Sequence record: PZ445551.1
Direction: 5' to 3' (one strand)
Origin: a phage
Length of the DNA: 64,000 bases
A program made the translations under genes and the position numbers. Of this stretch, positions 33,266-61,892 are shown piece by piece. Every line of letters starts with the position of its first letter. The first letter of the stretch is position 1. The notes beneath the pieces are model-generated. The model searched no databases, was not told the DNA's origin, and saw only the letters and a program-made list of their open reading frames with translations.

Positions 33266-33435
33266 GTTATTATGTTGTACCTTATGCCAATAAGTGGAGA
33301 GTAAGAGAAACTTGTTTTCTATTCTCTTGGTGGGCTACGTTCGGAGATGGTTGTGGAAATGATACAGGAAAGCCTGTAGAGTACGACACAAAAGAAGAAT
33401 GTGAACAGTGGATAAAATTAACACAAAGATGTTGA
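33262..33435 (+). CDS. small Cys-containing protein (about 57 aa)
   Basis: Not in ORF track; ATGA overlap with upstream gene. Confidence 0.35.
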   Translation: MSYYVVPYANKWRVRETCFLFSWWATFGDGCGNDTGKPVEYDTKEECEQWIKLTQRC

Positions 33436-38409: not shown

Positions 38410-39222
38410 TTACTTAGTCAAATGATCTTCTATCATTTTTATGAAAGCAGGATTGCTAAAAGCATCTGCTGCCTTTTCTCTATAAACAAAGACTCCTCTA
38501 TCTTCGTAAAGAAGAGTTTCTTCGTAATTAATTCCTGGGTTAACAACAATCATTTTTATACCCATAGTAAGTGCAGGGAATAATTCCCAATTAAAATTGA
38601 TAACTTGGTTTGAACATCCTACTACAACAACCAAATCTTGCATGGTCAAAGTATCAAACAAGTGAGCCATATCTGCATACAAAGGTGCAGCCTCACCAAA
38701 AAATACAACATTAGGCTTCACCCAGTTATAATCATCTATGTTTATACTATTGTAACCAATGTCTACCAGTGTTTTGTAATCTCCAGGGTGCATACGGTAA
38801 ACTACTTCAGGAAGATACCCGTGCACGTGAATAACAGAATCCCTGTCCACACCTGCTCGCTCTAGTAGATCATCAACGTTTGTTGTCAAGTTTACTACTT
38901 GGTTAGGATATTCCTTAAACCACTTTGCTATTTGAATATGTGCAGCATTAGGTTGTACATCTTTAAGCTCAACACGTCTTTTGTTATAAAATTCGTGTGT
39001 TTTGGCATACAAGTCCATACCGTTCTCGTCTACACCACCGACCACTGGAAGATCTGGAGATGTTCTCACACGATAACCTGCTTGGAAAGCTCCAATATCG
39101 CAGACCTCTTCTAAATCATATTCTTCCCACAAGGCACGACCACTATCTGTGTCTGTTCGGAATGTTCGAATCCCACTGTCTGCACTTAAACCTGCGCCAC
39201 TAACAAAAATTACTCTTCGCAT
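38410..39222 (-). CDS. Sir2-family NAD-dependent deacylase or ADP-ribosyltransferase-like protein
   Basis: GAGLSADSGIRTFR, TTNVDDLLERAG, HVHG, VVFFGE, LVVVVGCS; no CxxC zinc-binding pairs. Confidence 0.8.
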   Translation of the reverse strand: MRRVIFVSGAGLSADSGIRTFRTDTDSGRALWEEYDLEEVCDIGAFQAGYRVRTSPDLPVVGGVDENGMDLYAKTHEFYNKRRVELKDVQPNAAHIQIAKWFKEYPNQVVNLTTNVDDLLERAGVDRDSVIHVHGYLPEVVYRMHPGDYKTLVDIGYNSINIDDYNWVKPNVVFFGEAAPLYADMAHLFDTLTMQDLVVVVGCSNQVINFNWELFPALTMGIKMIVVNPGINYEETLLYEDRGVFVYREKAADAFSNPAFIKMIEDHLTK

Positions 39223-39764
39223 TCAATATCCTCTTCGTAATCATCATCCCAAGAAGATGCGTCGTAACGCTCTTCCTCTTCGAAATCCCAATTAATTTCT
39301 ACTCCAAAATCTAAAAACAATTTAACAATGTTTTCTGTAGAGTAGTATTTATCATAAGCGTCAGCTAGTTCCCAATACTTGTCACTCAATTTTTTATATT
39401 TAGGATCATTATAGTCATAATCTACTTTATAACCATAATCATACATCTCTTGTTCAGCTTTAAGCATAGCTTCTGGTGTAAGAAGATTAGGGAACGGACG
39501 ATTTCTTTCTTTTAACTTAGAAACAATCCAGTTTGCAACATTTGCCACTTCACCATCTTGATTATCACCTAAACAACTTGCATAATCTCCATCTTCGTAA
39601 GTGCCTAAATCCCCACAGACCACATGTACAATACTTGAATACGATCCACACGTTTCACAATCTGAAAAAGTGTCTACTGTTGTAATATCAATAGATAAAA
39701 CTGGTAAAGCCATAGCTTCTTTCACACAAGCCTCCTCATATAATAACATATCATCAAAACCCAT
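39210..39764 (-). CDS. highly acidic Cys/Tyr-rich hypothetical protein
   Basis: Start refined to MGFDDML with SD GGAGGA; C-terminus WDFEEEERYDASSWDDDYEEDIECEE. Confidence 0.5.
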   Translation of the reverse strand: MGFDDMLLYEEACVKEAMALPVLSIDITTVDTFSDCETCGSYSSIVHVVCGDLGTYEDGDYASCLGDNQDGEVANVANWIVSKLKERNRPFPNLLTPEAMLKAEQEMYDYGYKVDYDYNDPKYKKLSDKYWELADAYDKYYSTENIVKLFLDFGVEINWDFEEEERYDASSWDDDYEEDIECEE

Positions 39765-39783
39765 ATATCCTCCACACAAATAA

Positions 39784-39803
39784 AGCCCCTGATTGGGGCT
39801 TTG
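39784..39803 (-). terminator. hairpin + U-tract module upstream of SD
   Basis: AGCCCCAATCAGGGGCT then TTTATTTGT on minus strand. Confidence 0.45.
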
Positions 39804-39818
39804 GTTAAGTTTTACGGA

Positions 39819-40427
39819 TTATACCAGACTTTTAAGGTACTTGTCAAGGGCTTCTTGATCACCTTGACAAACATAGCAACGGAAGTCTTGAGCAGAAGGT
39901 TCTTTGTCCTCGTCCCAATCCCAATAGACAGTACCTTTATAACGTGAGCCTGGGAACTCGAAATATGCTGTATGAGTAATATGATGTGGGCCACCCCAAA
40001 ACTGTGTAAAAGTAAATTGAGGATACGCTGCTTTAACTGTATTTTCAAACCAAGTTTTACGATCTAATGCTTCGTTTATAAAATAAGCATGGCGTTCCAT
40101 TTCATCCCAGTTTTTCCAAACGCATTTTTCATCCAGAGAAAAAACAAAATCTTCACTGTTGAATTCATCTGTATCTTCCAAAATATCATAATCATGTGCA
40201 CTAGGTATCCACCATCCAGCTTCTAATAGTGCTTTCACGGGTACAAAACCTTTTTCAGCATATTGATCAAATTCTTTTACTCTACGTACAGTGCAGTATT
40301 CATCTTCACCACCAATGTCCAGTAGAAAAGCACCTTTGCGTCTTGCTGCAAGACCATGTGTATCAAAAACTACAACACTACCTTCACCATCTTCACGATC
40401 TACTTGATATGCAACTTTTTGAGTCAT
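39819..40427 (-). CDS. hypothetical protein (about 202 aa)
   Basis: Start refined to MTQKVAYQ; longer track ORF starts at a TTG. Confidence 0.5.
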   Translation of the reverse strand: MTQKVAYQVDREDGEGSVVVFDTHGLAARRKGAFLLDIGGEDEYCTVRRVKEFDQYAEKGFVPVKALLEAGWWIPSAHDYDILEDTDEFNSEDFVFSLDEKCVWKNWDEMERHAYFINEALDRKTWFENTVKAAYPQFTFTQFWGGPHHITHTAYFEFPGSRYKGTVYWDWDEDKEPSAQDFRCYVCQGDQEALDKYLKSLV

Positions 40428-40551
40428 ATTACCCCCCAATGTACATGGGAAATTAACCAAAAGATAAATTCCCAAAAACACCAACCAAGAAAAGTTAATG
40501 GAATTATAAAAGCTATCAGAGCAGTCTTCCAGCCTTTCCACAATGTTTCCA

Positions 40552-41541
40552 CTATTCCTCCATACATTTAAGAATATGTGCAATGACAGGTATAGTCCAA
40601 CCGTTACCTAACATCTTATATGCTTGTGTGTTACTACTCACTTTAAAGTAATCATCTGGAACACCTTGTAAGCGGCAACACTCTTTAACCGTTAACTTTC
40701 TATAATGTACGCCTTCACTCAATTTTTCAAAGGCATCTAGATATCTTCCAGGTGGAATGTAGGCTAATAGTACGTCTTTAGGCACAGTCGTGAGGCAACG
40801 AGTTTTTTCACTGTCCTGAACTTCCAAACAATGTACCAAACGATCAGTTTTAGATGTACTACGTTTGCCATTTTCATTAATTCTACGCCCATATATTGCT
40901 GCCGGATAAAAAACCAGTTGTCTGCGACTCTTTTCAAAATACTGTTCTATATTACCACCTTTGGCATAATTTGCATCTATGCAATAAGCCTTATCTCTGT
41001 CTACAATACTATCATCTTCAATTATATCTTGCAACACTTCATTGGTAATCTCCCAGGGTTTTATTTCCCAGTTGCACCAGTATAAACGTTGTCTATTCTG
41101 TGCCGTGAAATCTGCGGAGTTAATGAATACGGGATCAACACCTAAGTAACTTGTGATCACGTTTTCCCACTCCATTTTCATCTTAACGTTTTCAAGCATG
41201 AACTTAACATTAGGATTAAACTTTTTAATATGTTCAAGAATTTCAACATATTCGAAGAATAGCTTAGATCGTGGATCTTGAAAGTTCAAACCCTTACCAG
41301 AAGAAGAGAAGCCTTGACACGGACTACCACCTAACAAAAGATCAATTTCTCCCCACGGGATATCCCATTCTCTCCATTTTGTAACATCACCTAACTGAAT
41401 AATATCTGGAAAATTTGCTTGGCTTTCAGCTACGGCAAATTTGTCTAATTCTGAAGCGTAATATGTATCTACTTCAATACCTGCACTTTTTAGCGCAAGC
41501 ATTCCTCCTGACATACCATCAAAAAGACTTAAAACTTTCAT
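40552..41541 (-). CDS. dcm: DNA (cytosine-5)-methyltransferase
   Basis: Motif I LFDGMSGG, motif IV GSPCQGFS, motif VI ENVKMK, QNRQRLYW, GNGWTIPV. Confidence 0.85.
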   Translation of the reverse strand: MKVLSLFDGMSGGMLALKSAGIEVDTYYASELDKFAVAESQANFPDIIQLGDVTKWREWDIPWGEIDLLLGGSPCQGFSSSGKGLNFQDPRSKLFFEYVEILEHIKKFNPNVKFMLENVKMKMEWENVITSYLGVDPVFINSADFTAQNRQRLYWCNWEIKPWEITNEVLQDIIEDDSIVDRDKAYCIDANYAKGGNIEQYFEKSRRQLVFYPAAIYGRRINENGKRSTSKTDRLVHCLEVQDSEKTRCLTTVPKDVLLAYIPPGRYLDAFEKLSEGVHYRKLTVKECCRLQGVPDDYFKVSSNTQAYKMLGNGWTIPVIAHILKCMEE

Positions 41542-41543
41542 TA

Positions 41544-41954
41544 TTACTTCTTCTCCTTAACACTAGCTGGTAATTCTGCCTTGAGGCAGAAGTTTAAACG
41601 GTAAGCCTCATTCTCATTTAAAAGTACAGATTCACACGATAACCAGAACAAGAGATCCTCAATACCAGGACTGTTAAGCCAACAGTGCAGAAGAGAATGT
41701 TGTTCTATATCAATGTAATTTAGTAACAAGGCTTGTAAGGCGTAACTAGTTCCTGTCGTTTTTGCTTTTTCAAGGATGATATTGTGTTTACTAACAACTT
41801 TCTTCCTAAGACCAAACCATTTATTAACAACAACAGTCTCTTCTTGTAGTTGTTTTCTTATTTTCTCACATTCTTTAACTACAATCTGCATCTTATCCAC
41901 TGCTGATTGAAGTTGTTCTTTTGTTGGGTTTACAAAATAATCACTATAATACAT
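41544..41954 (-). CDS. hypothetical protein (136 aa)
   Basis: Preceded on minus strand by terminator, TTGACA-N17-TAGACT promoter-like element and SD GAGGAG. Confidence 0.55.
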   Translation of the reverse strand: MYYSDYFVNPTKEQLQSAVDKMQIVVKECEKIRKQLQEETVVVNKWFGLRKKVVSKHNIILEKAKTTGTSYALQALLLNYIDIEQHSLLHCWLNSPGIEDLLFWLSCESVLLNENEAYRLNFCLKAELPASVKEKK

Positions 41955-42007
41955 GCTAAACTCCTCTTCTGTTTTTCTGTAGTCTATTCGAAAAAACTGG
42001 TGTTGTC

Positions 42008-42033
42008 AACAAAAAACCCGCCGAAGCGGGTTT
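42008..42033 (-). terminator. rho-independent terminator
   Basis: ACCCGCTTCGGCGGGT followed by TTTTTTG on minus strand. Confidence 0.6.
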
Positions 42034-42036
42034 ATA

Positions 42037-42294
42037 TTATTCTACAGGAACTTCTTCACCAAGAGAAACTTCTAAACGGAATGCTTTACTTTCAATACAT
42101 TCACTACCTTTTAGAAAATCAAATTGCACTATAGACTGACTTAATAGGATAGATAGAATCACATCACAATCTTCACTAGGAGCTAGATGTTTGTATTCTT
42201 CCTTCAAGGTAACATCATAAAAACATAAATCCCCTACTCCTAGTTCATCCCATCCTTCCCACGCATCTACAAAGTTAAACTCTAAACCTTTCAT
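42037..42294 (-). CDS. hypothetical protein (85 aa)
   Basis: ORF in same-strand block. Confidence 0.5.
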   Translation of the reverse strand: MKGLEFNFVDAWEGWDELGVGDLCFYDVTLKEEYKHLAPSEDCDVILSILLSQSIVQFDFLKGSECIESKAFRLEVSLGEEVPVE

Positions 42295-42815
42295 ACAACC
42301 TCCTCGTAATTGTTATTGTGTTTTACTGTCTCAACATACAATAAAGATTCCATCTGTAATACATTACCAGAAATAATAAACCCATAAGCCATTTCAGATG
42401 TGTCTATATCATATGCCCCGTCTTCCGGTTTAGCAAAGTGTAAAACTATTTCATCTGGGTTTTCTTCATCCCATAGTTTAGAAATTTTCCGAACCAGAAT
42501 GTTAGCTAAAATAGTTGACATTCGGGATAAAGCTGTATCCTCATATCTTTTAAAACCTAGCCAATAGAGGTTAAGAATTTCTACTTCTTCTTGTGTTAAG
42601 TTTTTGTCTAAAGTAATCAGATCTGTAGAGCACGGCGTTTTTGTTGAACCTACGGTTACAAAACCTGGAGTGTTATGAAAAACAATCTTAACTTTATCAC
42701 GTATAAAGTTTAAACCTTGTGCCTCAACTATATATTGTATTGTAGGTACAATATCGTTTGTTACATCAATAAAACTATCTTTAATGACGCTTATATTATT
42801 TCTGGACAAGACCAT
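42291..42815 (-). CDS. hypothetical protein (174 aa)
   Basis: ATGA overlap. Confidence 0.55.
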   Translation of the reverse strand: MVLSRNNISVIKDSFIDVTNDIVPTIQYIVEAQGLNFIRDKVKIVFHNTPGFVTVGSTKTPCSTDLITLDKNLTQEEVEILNLYWLGFKRYEDTALSRMSTILANILVRKISKLWDEENPDEIVLHFAKPEDGAYDIDTSEMAYGFIISGNVLQMESLLYVETVKHNNNYEEVV

Positions 42816-43374
42816 TCTCCTCTAAAATAGGCTTAATAAACTCGAAAATTTGTTTTTTACTTTTACCTCGAATATTAAAACAAGGAACATTAAACTTTTT
42901 AGCCAACATCCAAGCTGTTCTTGTACCACCTAAAGGATCTCCATTTTTATCTGTATTTGCACAAGCTAAAAGAAAACAAGATGGTTTTGGATTCTCAAGA
43001 TCTCTTCCAAGAACTTGGTGAATATTTCTTTGATGTAATTTTTTAGAACCTTGAGATAATCTGTCCCAAGCTGGATGCAATTCTTTTGCATATTGCAAGG
43101 TTAGAGCATAGTTTACACTATCTGGTCTGTCAAGAACAATAACCTCTCCCTCTATTTCATTACCTTTAAACGAGAGCCAAGGGATGTATATTTCTTTCTT
43201 TGTATTGTTCCCACTATCATATACCCCGCATTCAAATGCGGAATCTGCACCTGCTGCTTTACCAGATCGCAAAATGAACCATGTAGATAACCATTTTGCA
43301 ACAGATACCATAGTATCCCATTCTTCGTCTGTAATATCTCTGCTACCAACACCTGTGTAGAATAAATCGCTCAT
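42796..43374 (-). CDS. DprA/Smf-like (SLOG superfamily) Rossmann-fold protein
   Basis: TGVGSRDIT, SGKAAGADSAFECG, HQRNIHQVLG, GGTRTAW pattern resembles DprA Rossmann core; start refined with SD AAGGAG. Confidence 0.5.
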   Translation of the reverse strand: MSDLFYTGVGSRDITDEEWDTMVSVAKWLSTWFILRSGKAAGADSAFECGVYDSGNNTKKEIYIPWLSFKGNEIEGEVIVLDRPDSVNYALTLQYAKELHPAWDRLSQGSKKLHQRNIHQVLGRDLENPKPSCFLLACANTDKNGDPLGGTRTAWMLAKKFNVPCFNIRGKSKKQIFEFIKPILEENGLVQK

Positions 43375-43384
43375 GGTTTTCTCC

Positions 43385-43705
43385 TTAACAAGTAATATTG
43401 GGAGTAACAATTGGATTAACAATTGGAGTAATAGGGTACGTAAACCAAGGGCTTCCAATTTCCCAAGGATTATAAGGTCTACGAGGATCAAATGGAGGAG
43501 TTACTTCAGGCTTTTTCCAAATCTCCGCTAGTTGTTTCTTCCATTTATCCCTTGCTGTCTCATTATCTTCATCCAACTGTTCATCATTATCTTTTATTTC
43601 TGGTTTTGGAAATAAAAGCTCTTTGACTAACTCAACATCTTCCGTCTCAATAGTAGTTTCTTTCGTAAGTTCTCCTACTGTTTCTTTAATTGTGATTTTA
43701 TACAT
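43385..43705 (-). CDS. hypothetical protein with Pro-rich C-terminus (106 aa)
   Basis: ORF in same-strand block. Confidence 0.5.
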   Translation of the reverse strand: MYKITIKETVGELTKETTIETEDVELVKELLFPKPEIKDNDEQLDEDNETARDKWKKQLAEIWKKPEVTPPFDPRRPYNPWEIGSPWFTYPITPIVNPIVTPNITC

Positions 43706-44448
43706 TAGTCCTCCTCTAAAGTAGAATAAAATTGTAACGTATTTGAATCATCAAAATATGCAAAGGTTAAATTACCATTGAAGCAAGATCCTGTGTCCAT
43801 ATATACCCTATTACTGCTAATCACAGGTTTAGGAACATAAGAATGCCCGTGAAATACATAATCTACTCCTGAAACCCTAGGGAGAAGAATTCCTTCAAGT
43901 GCGCAATCTATCATATCACGATCCCACATTAAAGATTCTGTGAATCGAGAAACTTGCTCTTTATTCATATTCAAACAAAATGGCAAAACTTCTGTCACTG
44001 GTAAATGTTTCAAAACTGAAGGATACCCACCGTGAATAAAGCCTAGTTTCATATTACGATAATTGACAACAAGTACAACAGGTAAATCTTCTAGCATCAA
44101 AGCAAGAGCAGTTGCACCCTCTTCTCCACACTCGTCTAGAACTGTATGGCCTCCGTTCTGAAACCAACATTCGTAATATCGTCTATCACCTTCTAGCAAC
44201 CCTTTAATCATCATATCTTCATGATTTCCACGAATACCATAACGATTTAGCTTTCTGGTGAATTCAACAACACAACGAAAATTCTGCTTGCCGCGATCTG
44301 TAAGATCTCCTAAAGATACAACAACATCTTGATCTCGGATACCTAAAGTATTAACACCTTTCTGGTACAAATCAAAGCAACCATGTAAATCACCAATAAT
44401 AAACAGGTCTTGATCATCTTTTACACTAATTTCTTGATATACTAGCAT
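43705..44448 (-). CDS. serine/threonine protein phosphatase (PPP / lambda-PPase family metallophosphoesterase)
   Basis: GDLHGC, GDLTDRG, GNHE, GHS motifs; start refined to ATG overlapping upstream stop. Confidence 0.85.
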   Translation of the reverse strand: MLVYQEISVKDDQDLFIIGDLHGCFDLYQKGVNTLGIRDQDVVVSLGDLTDRGKQNFRCVVEFTRKLNRYGIRGNHEDMMIKGLLEGDRRYYECWFQNGGHTVLDECGEEGATALALMLEDLPVVLVVNYRNMKLGFIHGGYPSVLKHLPVTEVLPFCLNMNKEQVSRFTESLMWDRDMIDCALEGILLPRVSGVDYVFHGHSYVPKPVISSNRVYMDTGSCFNGNLTFAYFDDSNTLQFYSTLEED

Positions 44449-44774
44449 CAACTCTCCTCAAAATCCATAAGTATAAAGATATTAACTTTACCTTCTATAT
44501 TATGTTCTACAACAAGATCTGCAAATTCTTTGTAGGCTTTTTCTTCTATTTGTTCAATGTGAGACGCTACATCTTTGTATATAGCGTCACCATCTACTTT
44601 AACAAGGAGGAATAGAGATCTTACTTCAATCTCTTTATTTTTACGGGGTAGAAAATCGACGGCTTCTTGTATACGCCAGCCGAGATACCCTGGAGTCCTT
44701 TGAATATCCTCCAAATGACTTTCTAAGATTTCCCTTCCTTTGTCTATTAAAGCCTGTTCTGTCGTTATTTTCAT
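44448..44774 (-). CDS. hypothetical protein (108 aa)
   Basis: ORF in same-strand block. Confidence 0.55.
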   Translation of the reverse strand: MKITTEQALIDKGREILESHLEDIQRTPGYLGWRIQEAVDFLPRKNKEIEVRSLFLLVKVDGDAIYKDVASHIEQIEEKAYKEFADLVVEHNIEGKVNIFILMDFEES

Positions 44775-44784
44775 CCCCTTCTCC

Positions 44785-45357
44785 TTAATGTGTTAATGAA
44801 ACTGCGTAACTAAACACAGGTTCAGATATTACATCGGCTACAGTAATAAAAACGTCTTCGTCTTGAGTTGTTTCTACACGACATACAGTTACACCATTCA
44901 CCACGAATTCAACGCAATGTGGAATATCTTCACAAACGAAGGTAGTGTAAGTAACACCCAAAGCATCATACAAAGATTTAACAGTGTTTGCAAGTGCCGC
45001 AGTTTCTTCTTTTTCTGAGACAATGAATGCTGTAACAACAAGATTGTTTGCATAGTTTAGACTGTCCTCTATAGCCAATGATTTACAAGGTAGTAATGCA
45101 AAATATTTACCTGGTTTAATCAGACCTGCTTCCCATTGATTCAAAATTGCTTGGGATGGTTTAGTAATATAAAACAGATTTTCACTTGGGTTATCAATAT
45201 TACTTCTGGCGATACAACGTGAAGGATTATTAATATCAAACACATGATCAAAATCTACACAAACTGGTAAACTGAAAGGTGTGAATTTTTTACCTAATAA
45301 TCCTACTGCTGACAATATGTTTGCTGTGCTTATCTTCCCGTTAAAAGCTAAACGCAT
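44785..45357 (-). CDS. hypothetical protein (190 aa)
   Basis: ORF in same-strand block. Confidence 0.55.
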   Translation of the reverse strand: MRLAFNGKISTANILSAVGLLGKKFTPFSLPVCVDFDHVFDINNPSRCIARSNIDNPSENLFYITKPSQAILNQWEAGLIKPGKYFALLPCKSLAIEDSLNYANNLVVTAFIVSEKEETAALANTVKSLYDALGVTYTTFVCEDIPHCVEFVVNGVTVCRVETTQDEDVFITVADVISEPVFSYAVSLTH

Positions 45358-45368
45358 ATTTAACTCCT

Positions 45369-45572
45369 TTAACTAGCAACCGTAACTTCCGAACTTTCTT
45401 CTTTCGTACTGTCTACGATATGCCTGGTGGCAATATACGAGACTTGCCAGTTACCATCTGGTGTAGTCTCAATAAGTACCCTATCTACTTCGAGAAAATG
45501 CAAAAATTCAACCATCGCTCGCTTCGATAGGAATTGTTTTTTAACAGTCTCCTCAAAAGATTGAACTGCCAT
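45369..45572 (-). CDS. hypothetical protein (67 aa)
   Basis: ORF in same-strand block. Confidence 0.5.
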   Translation of the reverse strand: MAVQSFEETVKKQFLSKRAMVEFLHFLEVDRVLIETTPDGNWQVSYIATRHIVDSTKEESSEVTVAS

Positions 45573-45581
45573 GTTTCCTCC

Positions 45582-46244
45582 TTATTTAATATTCAATTTT
45601 GCACAAAGACGTTGTACCGCTTTGGCATCGAACAAACTCCCACGAATAGTTCTCTTTCCTGATTCATTCAGATGTTTTGCAATCGTCATATATGGCGTTT
45701 TACAAGCTCTGTATGCAACTAAAGAATCTTTTAAAGAAAGCGCAAACTCTTTTGAGCGTTTTGCTTCTTCCGTTTTCGTATAATCTGTTCTTTTGTATTT
45801 AGGGTTTGCTGCACCAAGAAGCGTTCCCTTCGCTTTTGCTACTTTAAGGCTCTTCTTAACACGATCAGATATTGCACGAGCCTCTTCTTCTGCCAGAACT
45901 GCTAAAATATTTATTATCATATTTTCAGCGGAGGGCATAGTTGCTATTCGTACATTAATCATCTCTAACAAGGTTGCAACAGAAGCTGTGTTACGTCCAA
46001 GACGGTCAACCTTAGCAACAACAAGTGTAGCACCTGTTTCTTTGCAAAGATTAACAGCTTTTACAAGCTCTCTACGTTGCTTCCAATCGCCTTTACCCGA
46101 ATAAAACTCTGCAAAGCTACCTACAATAGTATAATTTTCTTGTGAATCCAGGAAGCGTTGGATATCTGCTTCCTGTGATTCTATACCATACTGGTTGCCT
46201 TGTTGTTTCTTCTTAGAAAGTCGATGATACAGTACAAACTTCAT
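45582..46244 (-). CDS. serine recombinase (resolvase/invertase family)
   Basis: N-terminal YHRLSKKKQQ with catalytic Ser context, VVAKVDRLGRN motif; own TTGACT-N17-CATACT promoter-like element upstream. Confidence 0.7.
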   Translation of the reverse strand: MKFVLYHRLSKKKQQGNQYGIESQEADIQRFLDSQENYTIVGSFAEFYSGKGDWKQRRELVKAVNLCKETGATLVVAKVDRLGRNTASVATLLEMINVRIATMPSAENMIINILAVLAEEEARAISDRVKKSLKVAKAKGTLLGAANPKYKRTDYTKTEEAKRSKEFALSLKDSLVAYRACKTPYMTIAKHLNESGKRTIRGSLFDAKAVQRLCAKLNIK

Positions 46245-46301
46245 AATACCCTCCTGTTCTGTTACAGGAAGTATGCACTACCTTAACGTTAAAGTCAACA
46301 G

Positions 46302-46505
46302 TTAAGTAGTGGTAATATCATCTTCTTGAATATCAGGATCAACTTCTGCAAAGATAGCTTCTACAGGAATTTCTTCACCTGCTATTCTAGAAAGAAGCAC
46401 TGAACCAATAGCTTTTGCGTGTTCTTCGGATTCCGCATAAACATTAGTCCCTGTGTCTTTTTTCTTAGTTTCGTTAAAATATACCAGATAGTAATTGTAT
46501 GCCAT
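46302..46505 (-). CDS. hypothetical protein (67 aa)
   Basis: Start refined to MAYNYYLV (TAATG coupling). Confidence 0.5.
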   Translation of the reverse strand: MAYNYYLVYFNETKKKDTGTNVYAESEEHAKAIGSVLLSRIAGEEIPVEAIFAEVDPDIQEDDITTT

Positions 46506-46756
46506 TATTCTTCCCAATCGTTGTTACGAGCATTTTCAAGAACCTTGACAACTTCTGCATACTCTACAGCTAAACCAGCACACACTTCAGCTTGTTTTGC
46601 AATTGCTTGTTTAAAGAACATAGCGATTGCAACACTCTGTGTTGTGTGAATGTTATCTGCTTTAGTTGATACGTGAAGATCAAAATCTTCTTCATCAAAG
46701 GTGAGTTCCATAGTAACAATAAATTTCTCGGTCATAAAAATGCTCCTCTTAAACAA
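46505..46756 (-). CDS. hypothetical protein (83 aa)
   Basis: ORF in same-strand block. Confidence 0.5.
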   Translation of the reverse strand: MFKRSIFMTEKFIVTMELTFDEEDFDLHVSTKADNIHTTQSVAIAMFFKQAIAKQAEVCAGLAVEYAEVVKVLENARNNDWEE

Positions 46757-47258
46757 AATAGAAAGGTTGAGTTAAACCCAGCCTGTTTTTTGGGTCGTAG
46801 ACGTACCAAGCATATGCTGTCTTATCAGTACCACCTGCAACAAAAGATGGTCGTTCAGAAAGAACAATCAAATTTGTTGGTGGATTCTGTTTATGGAATT
46901 CCCTTCGTTTAATAGACTCTAGGAAACCAAGACGCAACAAGTATATGCAAACGTCTGCTTCTTTTAAGCTCTTTTGCAAGAACTCAAGTGCAAGTTTGAA
47001 TGGGGGATTTGTGATTATAATATCCGGCTTAGTATGCCATTCGTGGTTAAAATAATCTTTCCCTTCTTCTAACTCACAATATTCTGATCCTTCTGGAAAA
47101 TGTTGATAAATTGCAGCAGCAGCGCCTTTACACGGTTCTGCAAAAATAAAACCTTCTTCTTTAAGGTTATTAAAATCTATTACACTAAATAATGCATTTA
47201 TACATTTTTGTGGAGTAGGATAGTAATCAGTTGGTGGACGATCATACTTATTTGCCAC
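46749..47258 (-). CDS. small phage Dam-like DNA N6-adenine methyltransferase
   Basis: DYYPTP and IIITNPPF (NPPF catalytic motif); size typical of small phage adenine MTases. Confidence 0.6.
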   Translation of the reverse strand: MANKYDRPPTDYYPTPQKCINALFSVIDFNNLKEEGFIFAEPCKGAAAAIYQHFPEGSEYCELEEGKDYFNHEWHTKPDIIITNPPFKLALEFLQKSLKEADVCIYLLRLGFLESIKRREFHKQNPPTNLIVLSERPSFVAGGTDKTAYAWYVYDPKNRLGLTQPFYFV

Positions 47259-47676
47259 TACTTAAAATCTCCTCTTTTGTGATTTCAGGGTCTTCTTCAA
47301 AAACCATAATATCTCTTAAGAACGTTAATTCTTCCATAGATACTGGTATTGTATCTTCTTCTGTTTTTCGTTTACATAAATCGTCAAGAAAGTTTTTAAA
47401 GTTTTCTGACAAATCGTAAAATTTCAACAGTTGATAATCACAGGAGGAGATCCTATCTAGTTCTAACATTCTTTCTAAGATATTTTCTGTGTTGCCATAC
47501 AGCACACGAACTTCTCCGAAAGGGTTGACTGAGTATTGTGAAGTTCTGAACCATCCCTTTTTAGATACAGTGTAACGCTGTTCTGCTAAACTTTCAATAA
47601 AATTTTTAGCTCTTTTACAGTTTTGTTCTAAAGAGTAGTAGGCTTTTTCTACAAAGGTTACAGGTACTGGTAACAT
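47248..47676 (-). CDS. hypothetical protein (142 aa)
   Basis: Preceded by hairpin and SD AGGAGGAG on minus strand. Confidence 0.55.
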   Translation of the reverse strand: MLPVPVTFVEKAYYSLEQNCKRAKNFIESLAEQRYTVSKKGWFRTSQYSVNPFGEVRVLYGNTENILERMLELDRISSCDYQLLKFYDLSENFKNFLDDLCKRKTEEDTIPVSMEELTFLRDIMVFEEDPEITKEEILSSGK

Positions 47677-47688
47677 ATCTCCTCCTAA

Positions 47689-47708
47689 TAACCCCCTTGC
47701 GGGGGTTT
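47689..47708 (-). terminator. hairpin + short U-tract upstream of SD
   Basis: ACCCCCGCAAGGGGGT then TTATT on minus strand. Confidence 0.4.
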
Positions 47709-47716
47709 ATACTAGA

Positions 47717-48370
47717 TTAATTATCAGAGGACACTTTATCAAGTTTTTCAGAGACTGTCAATACTTTTTCTTGTGATTCTTTCATTTCTGCTAAAATACT
47801 TTCAGCTTCATCACTATCAGGATCACCAGTCAACAGCATACTAATTAGTTGCTCCTTGCTGAAGTTCAGAATATCTTCCGCTGTTAGCTCCAGTTGTTCT
47901 TCGATCTCTTCAATAAAAGTTTCACCGCCGGAAAAAGCATCTCGTAGTTTTGCAACTTCCATCGCTTCTTCTGGAGTTGCCCCTGCATCTAAAGCTGCTA
48001 AAGCAAAATCTGCCCCACTACCAACAGCATAATAATCTTCAGTTAAAGGATATGCTCGCGTGGGATTATTACCCTCGTGCATATAAATTTTACCGTCTGG
48101 GTGAACAACCAATGCCACAAATTCTTCATCTTCTTTATCAGGATCTGACTGGATCACCAAACCTGGGATTGTCTCTTGTGCTGCTTGGCATTGTAAGTTT
48201 TGTTCGAACCAAGAAAAGAAAGTCAGGATAGAAGACAGACGTCCTGCACCACCAACAAGGTAGTCCCCAATTTTACGCACTTTCTTGAAATTTAAAGTGT
48301 CTACACGACTACCTACTGTTACTTTACCGTCAGACAGAATTTTGTTACGTGTTGCAATAATTGTTGTCAT
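47717..48370 (-). CDS. hslV: HslV-like (proteasome beta-type) peptidase with acidic C-terminal extension
   Basis: N-terminal MTTIIATR (Thr nucleophile after Met), KKVRKIGD, AVGSGADFALAALDAG align to HslV. Confidence 0.75.
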   Translation of the reverse strand: MTTIIATRNKILSDGKVTVGSRVDTLNFKKVRKIGDYLVGGAGRLSSILTFFSWFEQNLQCQAAQETIPGLVIQSDPDKEDEEFVALVVHPDGKIYMHEGNNPTRAYPLTEDYYAVGSGADFALAALDAGATPEEAMEVAKLRDAFSGGETFIEEIEEQLELTAEDILNFSKEQLISMLLTGDPDSDEAESILAEMKESQEKVLTVSEKLDKVSSDN

Positions 48371-48861
48371 TGTACTTCCTCCTGTAGTGTTTTAAGGACT
48401 GCTTTACCACCGCTTACATATTTACGGAGGTAATCAATAGCTCTTAGTGTTTCTTTATCCACAAGAATTTTATTAGTTCTTGTTAGTGGATGATTTAGTA
48501 AATCACTGCAATTTCTTACTAACATAGATTTCTTGTGAAAGATACTGCTAAGAAAAAGAAGTTTAGAATCTTCTTCATCAATCAGGAGTAATTCTGAATT
48601 AGACCCAGCTATATTTATTATACACTCAAACAAGCCTTCTTGACTATCAGATAATTCCTGGTAATATTTAGTTAGCCAATCCTCGCCTTTTAACCAACTA
48701 AAAAACATCTGAACTTTTTGCAAAGTTGTCATGTTCTCTAAACGAAGAGATATTTCTTTTTCAATCTTGTCAATATAAATCTGTCTAAACTCATTCGGCT
48801 TAACTAAGCCAGCTTGATAGCATTCATCAATACCATTGCGATCAATCTCAATTAGCGTCAT
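48367..48861 (-). CDS. hypothetical protein (164 aa)
   Basis: ATGA overlap with hslV-like gene. Confidence 0.55.
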   Translation of the reverse strand: MTLIEIDRNGIDECYQAGLVKPNEFRQIYIDKIEKEISLRLENMTTLQKVQMFFSWLKGEDWLTKYYQELSDSQEGLFECIINIAGSNSELLLIDEEDSKLLFLSSIFHKKSMLVRNCSDLLNHPLTRTNKILVDKETLRAIDYLRKYVSGGKAVLKTLQEEVQ

Positions 48862-50612: not shown

Positions 50613-51443
50613 TCACTCCTTGTTTAAAAGTATAGTTAAAGTTCTTACAATACCGCTATCAACACTTCGCGGATTTAAAGTAGGATCTGTTTTTAAATAA
50701 GATGTTGCTGGTCTGACTGCTTTTGAATTATAGGTTGAAGCAGATACAGGATTAACTGTAACAGATAAATCTATAACAAGAAATATCTTTCGTGCAAAAT
50801 CATACCAAGAAATATAATCTGCACCTGCATAGTGTACAATTTTACTATTTACACCATCTTTTACAAGTTTAAAAATTGTTTCTGCAAGATCAGGTGCATA
50901 AGTAGGACATGATAAATGATCACATACTACATTAAATTCTTTTTGACCACCGTTGTAGCGTTCCAACATAGTTTTCAAAAAGTTATGTCCAAATTCACTA
51001 TAAACAGAAGCTGTTCGGATAATAAGTGCTGTAGGACAAACTGTTTGTACTAAAGTTTCACCTAATTGTTTACTATAACCGTAGGTGTTCAAGGGGTTTG
51101 TTTTACTATCTTCTGTACCAGCAACATGCCCATCAAAAACATAGTCTGTTGAAATATGTACAAACTGTATCAGTAAATCATTACATGCTTTGGCAATGTT
51201 TGTTGCACCGTATGCATTAACATTTATACAGGTGTTAACATCTTCTTCAGCTTTATCTACTGCCGTGTAAGCCGCACAATTCACAACAACATCAGGCACA
51301 TGCTGTACAAGACTATTCATAACATCTTTAAAGTTGGTAATGTCTACATCACTTGCTTCAATCAAAATAACATCTTCGGGCGCAACTTTTGCCAAAGACT
51401 GTCCTAATTGACCTTTTGAACCAAAGACTAAAAATTTTGTCAA
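50613..51443 (-). CDS. rmlD: dTDP-4-dehydrorhamnose reductase
   Basis: GSKGQLG, AAYTAVDKAE, STDYVFDG, YGYSKQLGE; probable TTG start with SD AAGGAG. Confidence 0.88.
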   Translation of the reverse strand: MTKFLVFGSKGQLGQSLAKVAPEDVILIEASDVDITNFKDVMNSLVQHVPDVVVNCAAYTAVDKAEEDVNTCINVNAYGATNIAKACNDLLIQFVHISTDYVFDGHVAGTEDSKTNPLNTYGYSKQLGETLVQTVCPTALIIRTASVYSEFGHNFLKTMLERYNGGQKEFNVVCDHLSCPTYAPDLAETIFKLVKDGVNSKIVHYAGADYISWYDFARKIFLVIDLSVTVNPVSASTYNSKAVRPATSYLKTDPTLNPRSVDSGIVRTLTILLNKE

Positions 51444-51994
51444 AATATGATCTCCTTTAGTGTTTTGGCTTCCTGATCTTTTTGTGACAAGATAGGTTTA
51501 AAATTAATATCATTAAAGATTAAATCAAAACCCCAATCTATATTGATATCTGGATCATTCCACGCAAGACTACACTCTGAAGTCGGATCGTAATATTCTG
51601 TACATTTGTATTCAAAATCAGCAATATCACTAATCACAACAAAGCCATGAGCGAAACCAGGAGGAATCCAAAATTGTGTTTTATTCTTTTCAGATAAGAG
51701 AACACCTACCCATTCTCCAAATGTTGGACTACCAACCCTAATATCTACAGCAACATCATAAACTTCACCACGAACACAGCGTACTAACTTCCCTTGTGGG
51801 TTTTTCTTTTGAAAATGAAGCCCACGTAGAACTCCTCGGATAGAACGTGAATGGTTATCTTGGACAAAGTTTTGTTTACCTATGTATTGATCATATAAAG
51901 CCTGATTAAAACTTTCTAAGAAAAAGCCACGTTCATCTCCATAAACGTCAGGTTGAATGATCAACAAGTCTTCGATTTTTGTTGCTTGAATCAT
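51440..51994 (-). CDS. rmlC: dTDP-4-dehydrorhamnose 3,5-epimerase
   Basis: GDERGFFLESF, RGLHFQ, KLVRCVRGEVYDVAVDIR, IPPGFAHGF. Confidence 0.9.
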   Translation of the reverse strand: MIQATKIEDLLIIQPDVYGDERGFFLESFNQALYDQYIGKQNFVQDNHSRSIRGVLRGLHFQKKNPQGKLVRCVRGEVYDVAVDIRVGSPTFGEWVGVLLSEKNKTQFWIPPGFAHGFVVISDIADFEYKCTEYYDPTSECSLAWNDPDINIDWGFDLIFNDINFKPILSQKDQEAKTLKEIIF

Positions 51995-52006: not shown

Positions 52007-52876
52007 TTATTTTAATTTAAGTAAATACTTACCGTAGTCTGTTTTACTTAAAACCTCTCCAGAACTTTTTACAGAGTCTAAAGTAATCCATTCATTTTTA
52101 AAAGCAATCTCTTCCAGGCATGCAACCTTCATACCTTGTTGCTTCTCTATTGCATGAACAAATTGAGATGCTTCCATAAGACTTTCATGTGTTCCTGTAT
52201 CCAGCCAAGTGAAACCTCTTCCTAGCTTACAGACACGTAAAGCCTTTTCTTTCCAGTACATCTCATTTATATCTGTGATCTCTAACTCCCCTCTAGCAGA
52301 AGGCTTAACGCTTTTAGCTTTCTGTATAACAGAATTATCGTAAAAGTACAAGCCTGTAATTGCATAGTTGCTTTTTGGTGCTTTTGGTTTTTCTTCAATA
52401 CTTACCACTGTACCTTCAGAATCAAACTCAACAACACCAAATCTTTCAGGATCATTTACGTGATACCCAAAAATATTAGCTCCACCATTCTTTTCAATAT
52501 GTTCTTTAGCAGAATCTAAAATGCTACCAAAACTCTGACCAAAGAATAAATTATCACCTAGCACAAGTGCTACAGAATCTTCACCAATAAAGTTCTCACC
52601 AATAATAAACGCTTCTGCTAAACCTTTTGGGCTATCCTGTACTGCATACTGTAGGGAAATACCAAAAGAAGAACCGTCACCTAGAAGATTTACAAAATTA
52701 ATTTGATCTTCTGGTGTTGTAATTATTAGTATTTCCCTAATTCCAGAAAGCATTAGGACAGAGAGTGGATAATAAATCATAGGTTTATCGTAAATTGGTA
52801 ATAGTTGTTTACTAACCCCTTTAGTAACTGGGTAAAGTCTTGTTCCACTACCACCTGCTAAGATAATACCTTTCAT
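52007..52876 (-). CDS. rmlA: glucose-1-phosphate thymidylyltransferase
   Basis: [36 protein letters not shown]. Confidence 0.92.
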
Positions 52877-52884
52877 ACTCCTCC

Positions 52885-53874
52885 TTAAACTTTATTTTCC
52901 CACCACTCTTTGTTATCTACATACCAATCAATGGTTGAATAAAGTTTTTCTTCAAATGTGCCTTTAGCTTTCCACCCTAATTCCTTTTCAATCTTATAAG
53001 GATTCACTTCATATCTTAGATCATGCCCAGGCCTATCTGTAACCATCTCAATGAGGCTACAAGCATCTGTTTCAGATGGATATACCGCATCCATATAATC
53101 ACAAATCATATAGATTACATCAATATTAGTTCTAGGGTTTCTGCTCCCAATATTATATGTTTCTCCAGATTTGCCTTTAGTTACTACTAGGTGTAATGCT
53201 TCTGCGTGATCGTCAACGTATAGCCAGTCTCTTACTTGAAGACCATTACCATAAACAGGGATTGGTTTATTCATTAAGATATTTGTTATCGTCTTAGGTA
53301 TTAGTTTTTCTGGATGATGATATGCTCCAAAATTATTTGAACAATTTGTTATAACTGTCGGAATACCATAAGTACGATGCCACGCTCTTACCAAATGATC
53401 GCTTGCAGCTTTAGATGCAGCATATGGACTACTTGGTTTATAAGGATTCTGTTCTGTAAACGGATAATCCCCTTCTTCCAGATCACCATACACTTCATCT
53501 GTTGAAATATGATGGAACATTTTAAGATTTGATTTATCTCCCATTAAACGAACAGCTTCTAGAAGATTAAATGTCCCAACAATATTTGAATTTATAAAAA
53601 CACTCGGTGATGCTATTGAATTATCTACGTGACTCTCTGCTGCAAGATGCATTATATAATCTGGATTAACATCTGCCACAATCTTAGCAGTTAACTGCGC
53701 ATTTGTCAAGTCAACACGACAAAACTTTACATTAGGTGTTTCTGATAAATTCCTAGGGTCTGAAGCGTAACCCCATTTATCTATAACGTAAATATCATTC
53801 TTAGTATTTTTAGCTAGGAAACGAACTACCGCACTTCCAATAAAGCCTAAACCACCTGTTACTAAGTATTTCAT
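52885..53874 (-). CDS. rmlB: dTDP-glucose 4,6-dehydratase
   Basis: [37 protein letters not shown]. Confidence 0.92.
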
Positions 53875-59773: not shown

Positions 59774-60745
59774 TCACCATTTTGTATGGTTAGTCAAAAG
59801 TTGACGATGTTGAATCCAACCACAGAAGTTTCCACTCCACAAACGATGTTTACGATCCATATGTGTAATACCTTCTTCCCAAGAGGAAGGGAACGGAGGA
59901 ATATTAATACCACCTTTCTGTTGTTTTAATCCTGACAAATCCATTTCTTTCATTGGCGTTGCCTGGTGTTCAAACGGAGATGCATGTACCTTTTGTCCAG
60001 ACAGCAAACGAGAATAGATATCCAATGCTTTATCTTTAGTATCATTCAACTTACGATAACTTACCTGAGCGCAACAAGAAGCTGAAATAGCTTTTGCTTC
60101 ATCTTCTGTCAACATTTTCTCGTTGGAGAAGGTTTCACCCAAGAAATAACGGATCATACCAGTTTCTGGATCTCGATCACGATTAACGTAAGGTGTATGC
60201 CACTCCCCTGGGAAAAGAAGATATGGTTCAGAAGATTCATACAGTTTTTTAATTTCTTTAGCAAGAGCCTCAATAGTAGGATCTGCATCAGCATCTACGC
60301 GCAACCACAAGAAGTTTTCTAATTCTGTAGTGGTTACTACAGTCTTCATACGCTGGAATGGTTCTAGTAGTCGGTTTGCAACCTGTTTATGATAACCAGC
60401 AAGGGCAAACTCTTCTGCAAAACGTGCAGCACTTAGTGCAGCCAAGTCCCACCATTCTTTTGCAGTGTAACCTGCATCAATCAGGGCATCGTGATCTGTG
60501 CCTTTATCTTGCATACCTGGTTGGTTAGCACCAAAACGATAAGGACGTGCTGGAGATTGCCGTACCATTTCAATCAGGGTTTTAACAGGGATAGCTCGAC
60601 TTGATGCGGCATTACGAGAAAACAAACGATGCGTCATCAACTCAGAGTGAATGATTCGAGGATATTCAAGTTCAAAGGTAACAATATCCTTACCTTCAGA
60701 TGTTTGAGAGTGTGCAATAATTTTTGCTGAAATAGAATCTGTCAT
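59774..60745 (-). CDS. thyX: ThyX-like (flavin-dependent thymidylate synthase family) protein, divergent
   Basis: IVTFELEYPRIIHSELMTHRLFSRNAASSRA aligns to ThyX core but reads THR where canonical motif is RHR; 323 aa, longer than typical. Confidence 0.6.
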   Translation of the reverse strand: MTDSISAKIIAHSQTSEGKDIVTFELEYPRIIHSELMTHRLFSRNAASSRAIPVKTLIEMVRQSPARPYRFGANQPGMQDKGTDHDALIDAGYTAKEWWDLAALSAARFAEEFALAGYHKQVANRLLEPFQRMKTVVTTTELENFLWLRVDADADPTIEALAKEIKKLYESSEPYLLFPGEWHTPYVNRDRDPETGMIRYFLGETFSNEKMLTEDEAKAISASCCAQVSYRKLNDTKDKALDIYSRLLSGQKVHASPFEHQATPMKEMDLSGLKQQKGGINIPPFPSSWEEGITHMDRKHRLWSGNFCGWIQHRQLLTNHTKW

Positions 60746-60754
60746 TGTTTCTCC

Positions 60755-61345
60755 TTAAGGTAGTAAAATACTTTCAATTTCTTCCCACTGATTATCTAAA
60801 CCAGTGATAATTACATTAGGAAGTTTCTTTAACTCTTCCAAATATGGATCTTCGTAAATAGTGTTGAAATATATTTTCAACGTTTCATCTGGAAACAGGA
60901 CAAGATTTTCAGCCCTATCATCAATAGTTACGTCGCAAGGCAATAAGTATTTTTCTTTTGTTGCGAAAAAACCATTACCAGATGTTCTACTAAAATCCAC
61001 TTTATCTAAAGACCGTGTTACGTGTCTATATTTAGAACTAAGGTGTCCACCCTTAGTGTGGCTTGCTATAGATATATTAGCTCCATTTGCAATTATACGA
61101 TGAACAACATCTGTACTATTAGGTACTACTCCCATAGTATCATATAGATGTTGGTTATCCCAAAAAGAGTAAGGATCAACACCAAATTGCTTTTTAAAAT
61201 CAGGGAAATATTTCGTAATATCATAATGCACAGTTTTATGTGTATTATCAAATTTGATATTAGATCTACTTACCGCATTTAACCAATTTAACCACTCTAT
61301 ATCCGCAGGAGCTATTACTAAATCCCAATCACATACTAGACGCAT
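60755..61345 (-). CDS. putative 5'(3')-deoxyribonucleotidase-like HAD-family protein
   Basis: Start refined to MRLVCDWDLVIAP with SD AGGAG; C-terminal LPCDVTIDDRAENL resembles NT5C-type motif. Confidence 0.45.
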   Translation of the reverse strand: MRLVCDWDLVIAPADIEWLNWLNAVSRSNIKFDNTHKTVHYDITKYFPDFKKQFGVDPYSFWDNQHLYDTMGVVPNSTDVVHRIIANGANISIASHTKGGHLSSKYRHVTRSLDKVDFSRTSGNGFFATKEKYLLPCDVTIDDRAENLVLFPDETLKIYFNTIYEDPYLEELKKLPNVIITGLDNQWEEIESILLP

Positions 61346-61892
61346 TATTTCTCCTGTTATAACATTTTCTACACATTGTTTCGTAAATGTCTTCTCCCCC
61401 AATAACAATCTGTTCTTTAGAGTCGATAAGTCTAGCATTGAAAATAGCTTTTCTTCCACATTTACAAATGCTTTTCAATTCTGTAATTGAATCTGCTATG
61501 GCTAATAACCGTTCAGAACCTTCAAACAATTCTGTAGCAAAATCTGTTTTAAGTCCATAACAGAATACAGGAATATCGTAATTATCTACCACATCTCCAA
61601 GAATGTCAACCATATCTTTAGTTAGGAATTGTGATTCGTCCACAAATACTGCATCTACTGGATTTTCTTTAAGCTGTGTATAAATTTCCAGCATATCTTC
61701 TTTTGTTTTAACTGGTTTTGCTTCCTCTTTAATACCTATCCTAGAAGCAATAGCACTACCAGATCTGGTATCTAAAGCTGAAGTTAAAAGAAGAACTTTC
61801 ATATTTCTTTCTTTATAGTTCCAAGCTGTTTGTAGAAGATGTGTGCTTTTACCACTGTTCATTGGACTATATCGGAAATAAAGTTTAGCCAT
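61329..61892 (-). CDS. tdk: thymidine kinase
   Basis: MAKLYFRYSPMNSGKST, FVDESQFL, CYGLKTDF, CKCGRKA...CRKCY. Confidence 0.93.
   Translation of the reverse strand: MAKLYFRYSPMNSGKSTHLLQTAWNYKERNMKVLLLTSALDTRSGSAIASRIGIKEEAKPVKTKEDMLEIYTQLKENPVDAVFVDESQFLTKDMVDILGDVVDNYDIPVFCYGLKTDFATELFEGSERLLAIADSITELKSICKCGRKAIFNARLIDSKEQIVIGGEDIYETMCRKCYNRRNNASSM

Follow-up and report, generated by a model that had tools for sequence, protein, structure and literature searches.

Does a lytic phage that carries two DNA methyltransferases (MTases) use them to shield its genome against restriction, and what do these enzymes reveal about the state of its cytosines? Both questions are raised by a stretch of phage DNA of 64,000 nucleotides (sequence record PZ445551.1, hereafter the window, at its full length), which encodes a C5-cytosine MTase and a small putative adenine MTase. 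The initial annotation of these genes, made from the letters alone, took them as signs of unmodified cytosine and of methylation-based anti-restriction. We consider it moderately probable that motif-specific methylation of the progeny DNA blocks a few cognate restriction enzymes, and that an otherwise canonical DNA background is protected mainly by site avoidance.

In reverse complement, the window corresponds to bases 48201-112200 of Escherichia phage VivaForever (PP925843.1), with one single-nucleotide difference (position 33327, T versus C). In megablast searches, VivaForever matched positions 40000-48000 of the window at 100%, and phi92 together with about 55 other Justusliebigvirus phages matched at 97-99%. 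The phage is a lytic, phi92-like myovirus of the genus Justusliebigvirus, subfamily Stephanstirmvirinae. The T-even phages, which the initial annotation had chosen as comparator, are an unrelated lineage, and 5-hydroxymethylcytosine (hmC) was therefore never to be expected. Annotations of both MTase genes already exist: the deposited genome has them, phi92 lists them as gp043 ('putative site-specific DNA-methylase') and gp056, and about 55 relatives show them in the same gene order and with 97-100% nucleotide identity. In phage EmilieFrey, the orthologue of the C5-MTase is bas61_0190 ('Dcm-like C5 cytosine methyltransferase'), and that of the small MTase is bas61_0203 ('putative N6 adenine methyltransferase'). 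An experimental characterisation of the phi92- or EmilieFrey-type orthologues was not found in the searched literature. The finding as such is ordinary: the genes have been annotated in phi92 since 2012, and anti-restriction is what is commonly assumed for orphan MTases of phages.

Two stand-alone methyltransferases

The two genes and their diagnostic motifs are located as follows.

40552-41541, minus strand: orphan C5-cytosine DNA methyltransferase of 329 residues with a DNMT3-like fold, orthologue of phi92 gp043, assigned by profiles, motifs and fold
41305-41328, minus strand: its motif IV, GSPCQGFS (residues 72-79), with the predicted catalytic Cys75; all of 40 homologues retain P74, C75 and Q76
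41503-41526, minus strand: its motif I, LFDGMSGG (residues 6-13), located in the 329-residue open reading frame (ORF)
46749-47258, minus strand: stand-alone gamma-type amino-methyltransferase core of 169 residues without a target-recognition domain, orthologue of phi92 gp056; predicted N6-adenine MTase
46998-47009, minus strand: its motif IV, NPPF (residues 84-87); 41 family members show no substitution at N84, P85 or P86 and hardly any at F87
47211-47228, minus strand: its motif-X-like DYYPTP (residues 11-16), which precedes motif I, AEPCKGAAA (residues 40-48), in the family alignment of 41 sequences

The C5-MTase is matched by Pfam PF00145 across residues 1-327 (E 2e-43, 149.5 bits versus a cut-off of 22), by NCBIfam TIGR00675 (141.7 bits, cut-off 100.65) and by PHROG 116 (E 4e-74). 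Besides motifs I and IV, we located motif VI (MLENV, residues 115-119), motif VIII (QNRQR, residues 148-152), motif IX (RKLTVKECCRLQGVPDDY, residues 281-298) and motif X (GNGWTIPV, residues 312-319), and the 329-residue protein has the two-domain fold of C5-MTases. Thus, the motif set I, IV, VI, VIII and X read from the sequence by the initial annotation is confirmed, with the catalytic residues invariant in all 40 homologues. The profile and motif matches of both MTase ORFs are far beyond chance. A structure comparison against BFVD returned only uncharacterised phage proteins.

The best sequence matches of the C5-MTase in the PDB were the catalytic domains of DNMT3A and DNMT3B (E about 4e-23), with M.HaeIII and M.HhaI ranking behind. 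In contrast to DNMT3A and DNMT3B, the phage enzyme has neither PWWP nor ADD domains nor a DNMT3L-type partner. Its variable region, which separates motif VIII from motif IX and comprises about 125 residues (partly of low confidence in the model), matched no solved or characterised enzyme, so that the specificities of DNMT3A, DNMT3B, the prokaryotic and phage DNMT3-like branch, M.HhaI, M.HaeIII and M.MpeI are not transferable. Two routes to the target sequence were rejected. The alignment with solved relatives is limited to the catalytic motifs, and restriction endonucleases adjoining close homologues gave no lead: many homologues share 50-59% identity with it in the variable region, and the two contexts of at least 50%-identical ones that we examined were phage or prophage contigs devoid of restriction endonucleases. 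'Dcm-like', the name given in GenBank, is a generic label. NF007772, the model for the Dcm subfamily, scored 30.1 bits (cut-off 710) and covered only the C-terminal 49 residues; likewise, the Shigella Dcm structure (3lx6, 3me5) aligns to residues 273-328 only, where motifs IX and X are located. The enzyme shares the superfamily with E. coli Dcm and M.EcoRII, and the CCWGG sequence that these recognise is not avoided by the phage.

Translation of the small MTase starts at a GTG codon behind a GAGGAG Shine-Dalgarno sequence, and the order of its motifs, X-I-IV, is that of the gamma class. The protein matched PHROG 799 'DNA methyltransferase' (E 8e-57) and, weakly, the PADLOC model MTase_II (E 9e-5); neither a Pfam or NCBIfam match at E<=0.01 nor a PDB sequence match was obtained. 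The presence of DYYPTP and NPPF, which the initial annotation had pointed out, is borne out by their conservation in the 41-sequence alignment. Motif and fold suggest an adenine MTase, and adenine in DNA is the substrate that we infer for it. The enzyme shares the X-I-IV order, NPPF and, probably, the Rossmann fold with M.TaqI, the type I subunit HsdM and the methylase domain of MmeI. In those enzymes, however, the target is recognised by a dedicated domain or subunit, which is either part of the protein or recruited by it. The phage protein consists of the 169-residue core only, 159 residues of which align to the catalytic core of MmeI.

We considered an overlapping upstream ORF of 142 residues (47248-47676, minus strand) as a specificity partner. 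Its end shares 11 nt with the beginning of the small MTase gene, which suggests translational coupling, and its Phapecoctavirus counterpart (46% identity) shows the identical overlap. The candidate was rejected, as the ORF is confined to Stephanstirmvirinae and the neighbours of distant MTase homologues are unrelated. No conserved partner gene was found among the homologue neighbourhoods examined.

The family of the small MTase is large: a search of 1.84 billion proteins gave 13793 cluster representatives at E<=0.001, of which 7037 reach E<=1e-10. The 150 top matches listed are nearly all 160-220 residues long, and the members examined are phage-borne. This abundant, uncharacterised family devoid of a target-recognition domain represents the sole mildly novel angle of this locus. 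The family appears to be almost exclusively phage-borne, features NPPF and has neither a Pfam model nor a solved or characterised member. We tentatively raise the possibility, doubtful as it is, that it might select its substrate in a new way, namely by the catalytic core alone, through a host-supplied partner or by targeting RNA.

Neither gene has a cognate nuclease nearby. Searches of the flanking ORFs (38410-48861) with Pfam (E<=1), PADLOC and NCBIfam revealed no nuclease or restriction endonuclease, with the proviso that very divergent restriction endonucleases escape profiles, and the nearest nuclease-annotated genes, at least 8.8 kb off, encode HNH homing endonucleases. The phage and prophage contigs examined likewise contained no restriction endonuclease families beside homologues of either enzyme; there, the homologues are located in replication modules. 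The orphan status proposed in the initial annotation therefore stands. Both genes are under purifying selection. We compared them with their counterparts in three other Justusliebigvirus genomes, where both are intact. The ratio of non-synonymous to synonymous substitution rates (dN/dS) of the C5 gene was 0.05-0.12; that of the small gene was 0.05-0.065, and its comparison with Phapecoctavirus nepoznato gave 0.05.

The situation resembles that of phage orphan MTases in general, among them the Dam enzymes of T4, T2 and P1: an MTase is encoded by a lytic phage without a nuclease and is presumed to protect the progeny DNA. The Dam-type enzymes, however, belong to the alpha or beta class and are specific for GATC, whereas the small enzyme of the window is of the gamma type. 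Phage orphan methyltransferases are reportedly the subject of a review by Murphy and coworkers from 2013 (Murphy et al. 2013).

Restriction sensitivity and site avoidance

The MTases of EmilieFrey (Bas61) are identical to those of the window at 328 of 329 and 168 of 169 positions. According to the BASEL raw data, Bas60, Bas61 and Bas62 failed to form plaques in any replicate when the host carried EcoRI, EcoRV or EcoP1, and their efficiency of plating was 0.1-0.7 with EcoKI and 0.06-0.4 with EcoCFT_II. Protection against the six restriction-modification (RM) systems tested was nil to weak. The BASEL authors contrast the phi92-like phages with Tevenvirinae and call them 'exceptionally susceptible' to RM systems 'despite a putative dTDP glycosylation machinery' (PMC8594841). 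As phages with near-identical enzymes are fully restricted by EcoRI, EcoRV and EcoP1, any protection by the MTases must be narrow. Thus, the methylation-based anti-restriction put forward by the initial annotation survives in a motif-specific form, but not as broad protection.

To quantify the avoidance of restriction sites, the whole VivaForever genome (146,096 bp) was assembled, and k-mer counts were compared with maximal-order Markov expectations; the window was compared with 100 third-order Markov simulations. Restriction sites that contain G and C are massively purged, and the genome lacks 22 of the 64 six-bp palindromes. The window lacks 23 of 64, compared with a mean of 3.4 and a maximum of 7 in the simulations. 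Genome-wide, the observed versus expected counts were 0/46.5 for AAGCTT, 1/32 for CTGCAG, 0/19.5 for GGATCC and 0/20 for GGTACC. Degenerate sites are purged as well (GGWCC, 0/46; GGYRCC, 2/49; GRCGYC, 2/27), and so are many CpG palindromes (CGATCG, 0/12.9; CGTACG, 0/9.8; AGCGCT, 0/9.7). EcoRI and EcoRV sites, by contrast, occur at expectation, which fits the measured sensitivity. Purging makes sense only for bases that are exposed to restriction. Therefore, site loss rather than modification is the dominant strategy of anti-restriction, and methylation is at best motif-specific.

Several motifs are not avoided, namely GATC (649 observed versus 642 expected), GCGC (149/136), CCWGG (187/202), GCNGC (267/243) and also CGCG. 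Methylation by the phage or the host may protect them, which leaves room for a motif-specific shield. Avoidance is lineage-specific: nepoznato keeps AAGCTT (78 versus 77) and GGWCC (37 versus 45) and purges GTAC and CTSAG. A comparison of the two avoidance patterns did not point to the C5 target, as no C-containing motif purged in nepoznato and kept in VivaForever qualified. CpG depletion as a sign of deamination of 5-methylcytosine (5mC) was not discriminating either (observed/expected 0.71 versus 0.78).

In the mechanism that we propose, two independent stand-alone, S-adenosylmethionine-dependent MTases would be made from genes in the early/middle block of this lytic phage. The C5 enzyme would flip its target cytosine, Cys75 of the PCQ motif would attack C6, and the methyl group would be moved to C5 within a short motif. 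The small enzyme would most probably generate N6-methyladenine on DNA at a limited set of sites. Both are predicted to act on replicating phage DNA, so that progeny virions would carry the marks into the next host. There, a restriction enzyme would be blocked only if its site overlapped a methylated motif, and the bulk of restriction evasion would result from the evolutionary loss of sites from otherwise canonical, unmodified DNA. A further hint comes from the hosts. The E. coli K-12 strain MG1655, on which several relatives were isolated, carries McrA, McrBC and Mrr. The context of 5mC is therefore probably not an efficient McrBC substrate (R-5mC).

Several points weigh against this mechanism. 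The motifs retained by VivaForever are also unavoided in nepoznato, which lacks the C5 gene at this locus; hence, they do not identify the C5 target, and their retention need not stem from the C5 enzyme. Host Dam or Dcm could account for the retention of GATC and CCWGG. The BASEL authors saw no simple link between MTase genes and restriction resistance in Drexlerviridae (PMC8594841). Finally, the searched literature yielded no methylome, nucleoside or enzymatic data for phi92-like phages, and the paper on DNA modification in the Durham collection does not mention Justusliebigvirus, phi92 or 'Pau'.

With site loss as the main answer to type II restriction, the MTases can explain only a narrow slice of the host range. 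For phage therapy with phi92-like phages, sensitivity to hosts with RM systems whose sites have not been purged (EcoRI and EcoRV types) is to be predicted, whatever MTase genes are present.

Alternative substrates and roles

The small enzyme might methylate RNA, forming N6-methyladenosine or N2-methylguanosine in rRNA or tRNA like METTL5/PH1948 or RsmC/RsmD, or else protein, in which case the DNA would be modified by the C5 enzyme only. We regard this as a possibility to be taken seriously, yet an unlikely one. METTL5 does appear in the comparisons. In structural superpositions, 142-159 of the 169 residues fitted gamma-class enzymes; MmeI (159 residues), BsaXI (158) and HsdM (156) accommodated more of the protein than METTL5 (140). 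A search of the PDB with the family profile gave weak matches only, which were led by the DNA MTases DpnA (0.013) and HsdM (0.018), with METTL5 at 0.28. The same profile aligns the stretch from DYYPTP to motif I with 'GQYFTPR...DPACGTGGF' of the type I HsdM StySJI. In addition, the homologues cluster in phage replication modules with DNA MTases of the Dam (PF05869), D12 (PF02086) or C5 (PF00145) type, often as direct neighbours.

Alternatively, both enzymes may act on phage DNA, but mainly for purposes other than anti-restriction, such as marks for replication, packaging or the timing of transcription, discrimination between phage and host, or modulation of mismatch repair. The lineage already escapes most type II enzymes by site loss and nevertheless remains highly sensitive to restriction in the laboratory, both of which would suit such a role. 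The small enzyme is a core gene with fixed synteny across Justusliebigvirus and Phapecoctavirus, as expected for a housekeeping function. In nepoznato, it resides in a syntenic block that comprises an HslV-like gene, the 142-residue ORF, the MTase, small ORFs and HisRS-like, phosphatase and DprA-like genes. This block contains neither the C5 gene nor the serine recombinase gene that lies between the two MTase genes of the window. On the other hand, no regulatory motif or methylation-dependent element was identified, and the C5 gene is genus-specific. Outside the genus, its nearest nucleotide relatives (71-75%) reside in the unrelated jumbo phages PBECO4, 121Q, RaK2 and CMSTMSU, which is typical of traded cargo for defence or counter-defence. 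At the protein level, the PBECO4 homologue shows 51% identity, and its variable region is shorter by about 40-50 residues. The nucleotide similarities suggest a horizontal exchange of the C5 gene among large myoviruses of enterobacteria. The C5 enzyme would then be traded cargo, whereas the small one belongs to the long-standing gene core of the subfamily. Overall, we judge a role outside restriction to be rather improbable for the pair.

A general immunity against restriction, conferred by both enzymes through, for example, low-specificity methylation, is very improbable. The small enzyme has no recognition domain, and the closest structural relatives of the C5 enzyme, DNMT3 and M.MpeI, recognise CpG only; both facts would be compatible with dense methylation. 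However, the complete restriction of Bas60-62 by EcoRI, EcoRV and EcoP1, with enzymes 99.4-99.7% identical to those of the window in Bas61, excludes a non-specific adenine methylase or blanket modification. Moreover, the loss of CpG palindromes would be needless under blanket CpG methylation, which is therefore unlikely, and the avoidance pattern does not support a CpG specificity like that of DNMT3 or M.MpeI.

A last question concerns the cytosines themselves. The only thymidylate synthase gene of the window (59774-60745, minus strand) encodes a flavin-dependent enzyme of the ThyX type (PF02511) and not ThyA. The dCMP and dUMP hydroxymethylases derive from the ThyA family. No hydroxymethylase is annotated in the 146-kb genome, and none of the ThyA family was found. 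Together with the plating data and the purged sites, this supports canonical cytosine. The statement of the initial annotation that cytosine is not fully replaced by hmC therefore holds, although ThyX, purged sites and plating are better evidence for it than the presence of a C5-MTase. The T-even phages with hmC or glucosyl-hmC are likewise large virulent E. coli myoviruses with genes of nucleotide metabolism. The phi92-like phage differs from them by its ThyX, the lack of an annotated dCMP hydroxymethylase, its EcoRI- and EcoRV-sensitive relatives and the strong avoidance of sites. The outcome is thus a corrective one: the lineage is not T-even-like, its cytosines are canonical, and site loss is its main answer to type II restriction.

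The window also encodes a complete pathway to dTDP-rhamnose on the minus strand, with RmlD (50613-51443), RmlC (51440-51994), RmlA (52007-52876) and RmlB (52885-53874), and Olsen et al. floated the idea of rhamnosylated hydroxymethyl-bases. That a hypermodified base of this kind, such as a rhamnosylated hydroxymethyl-pyrimidine, occurs in the DNA and the MTases are accessory is scarcely credible: the four rml genes are intact, and four consecutive glycosyltransferase genes outside the window (PP925843.1, 129644-132820) adjoin those for primase/helicase and DNA polymerase, but the thymidylate synthase is ThyX and no ThyA-family hydroxymethylase was found, EcoRI, EcoRV and EcoP1 fully restrict phages that are near-identical, the genome strongly avoids restriction sites, and the C5-MTase requires an unsubstituted C5. 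The idea therefore has no enzymatic support, and DNA glycosylation is not supported in view of the restriction-sensitive close relatives. Contrary to the initial annotation, neither MTase gene informs on what the rml pathway would glycosylate. Adjacent to thyX lies a putative 5'-nucleotidase-like ORF (60755-61438), with a weak NT5C match just under the Pfam threshold.

Neighbouring and additional genes

Between the two MTase genes of this strictly lytic phage sits a gene for a serine recombinase/invertase of 220 residues (45582-46244, minus strand; PF00239, E 8e-22). It shows zero non-synonymous changes in the three comparisons within the genus. A search for flanking inverted repeats that could serve as its substrate gave nothing convincing.

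The same early block, all on the minus strand, encodes a Sir2-family protein (38410-39222; PF02146), a protein of 190 residues (44785-45357) that carries the PHROGs label 'histidyl tRNA synthetase' and has no Pfam hit, and an HslV/proteasome-like peptidase (47717-48370).

Outside the window, a GenBank entry named 'DNA methyltransferase' between the portal and head genes (PP925843.1, 25778-26257) was rejected as an MTase, as it represents a prohead protease of the XkdF type (PF14550). A third genuine MTase is encoded near the tail genes (PP925843.1, 140148-140879). It is a beta-class N6/N4 enzyme (PF01555) with a CcrM-like N-terminus.

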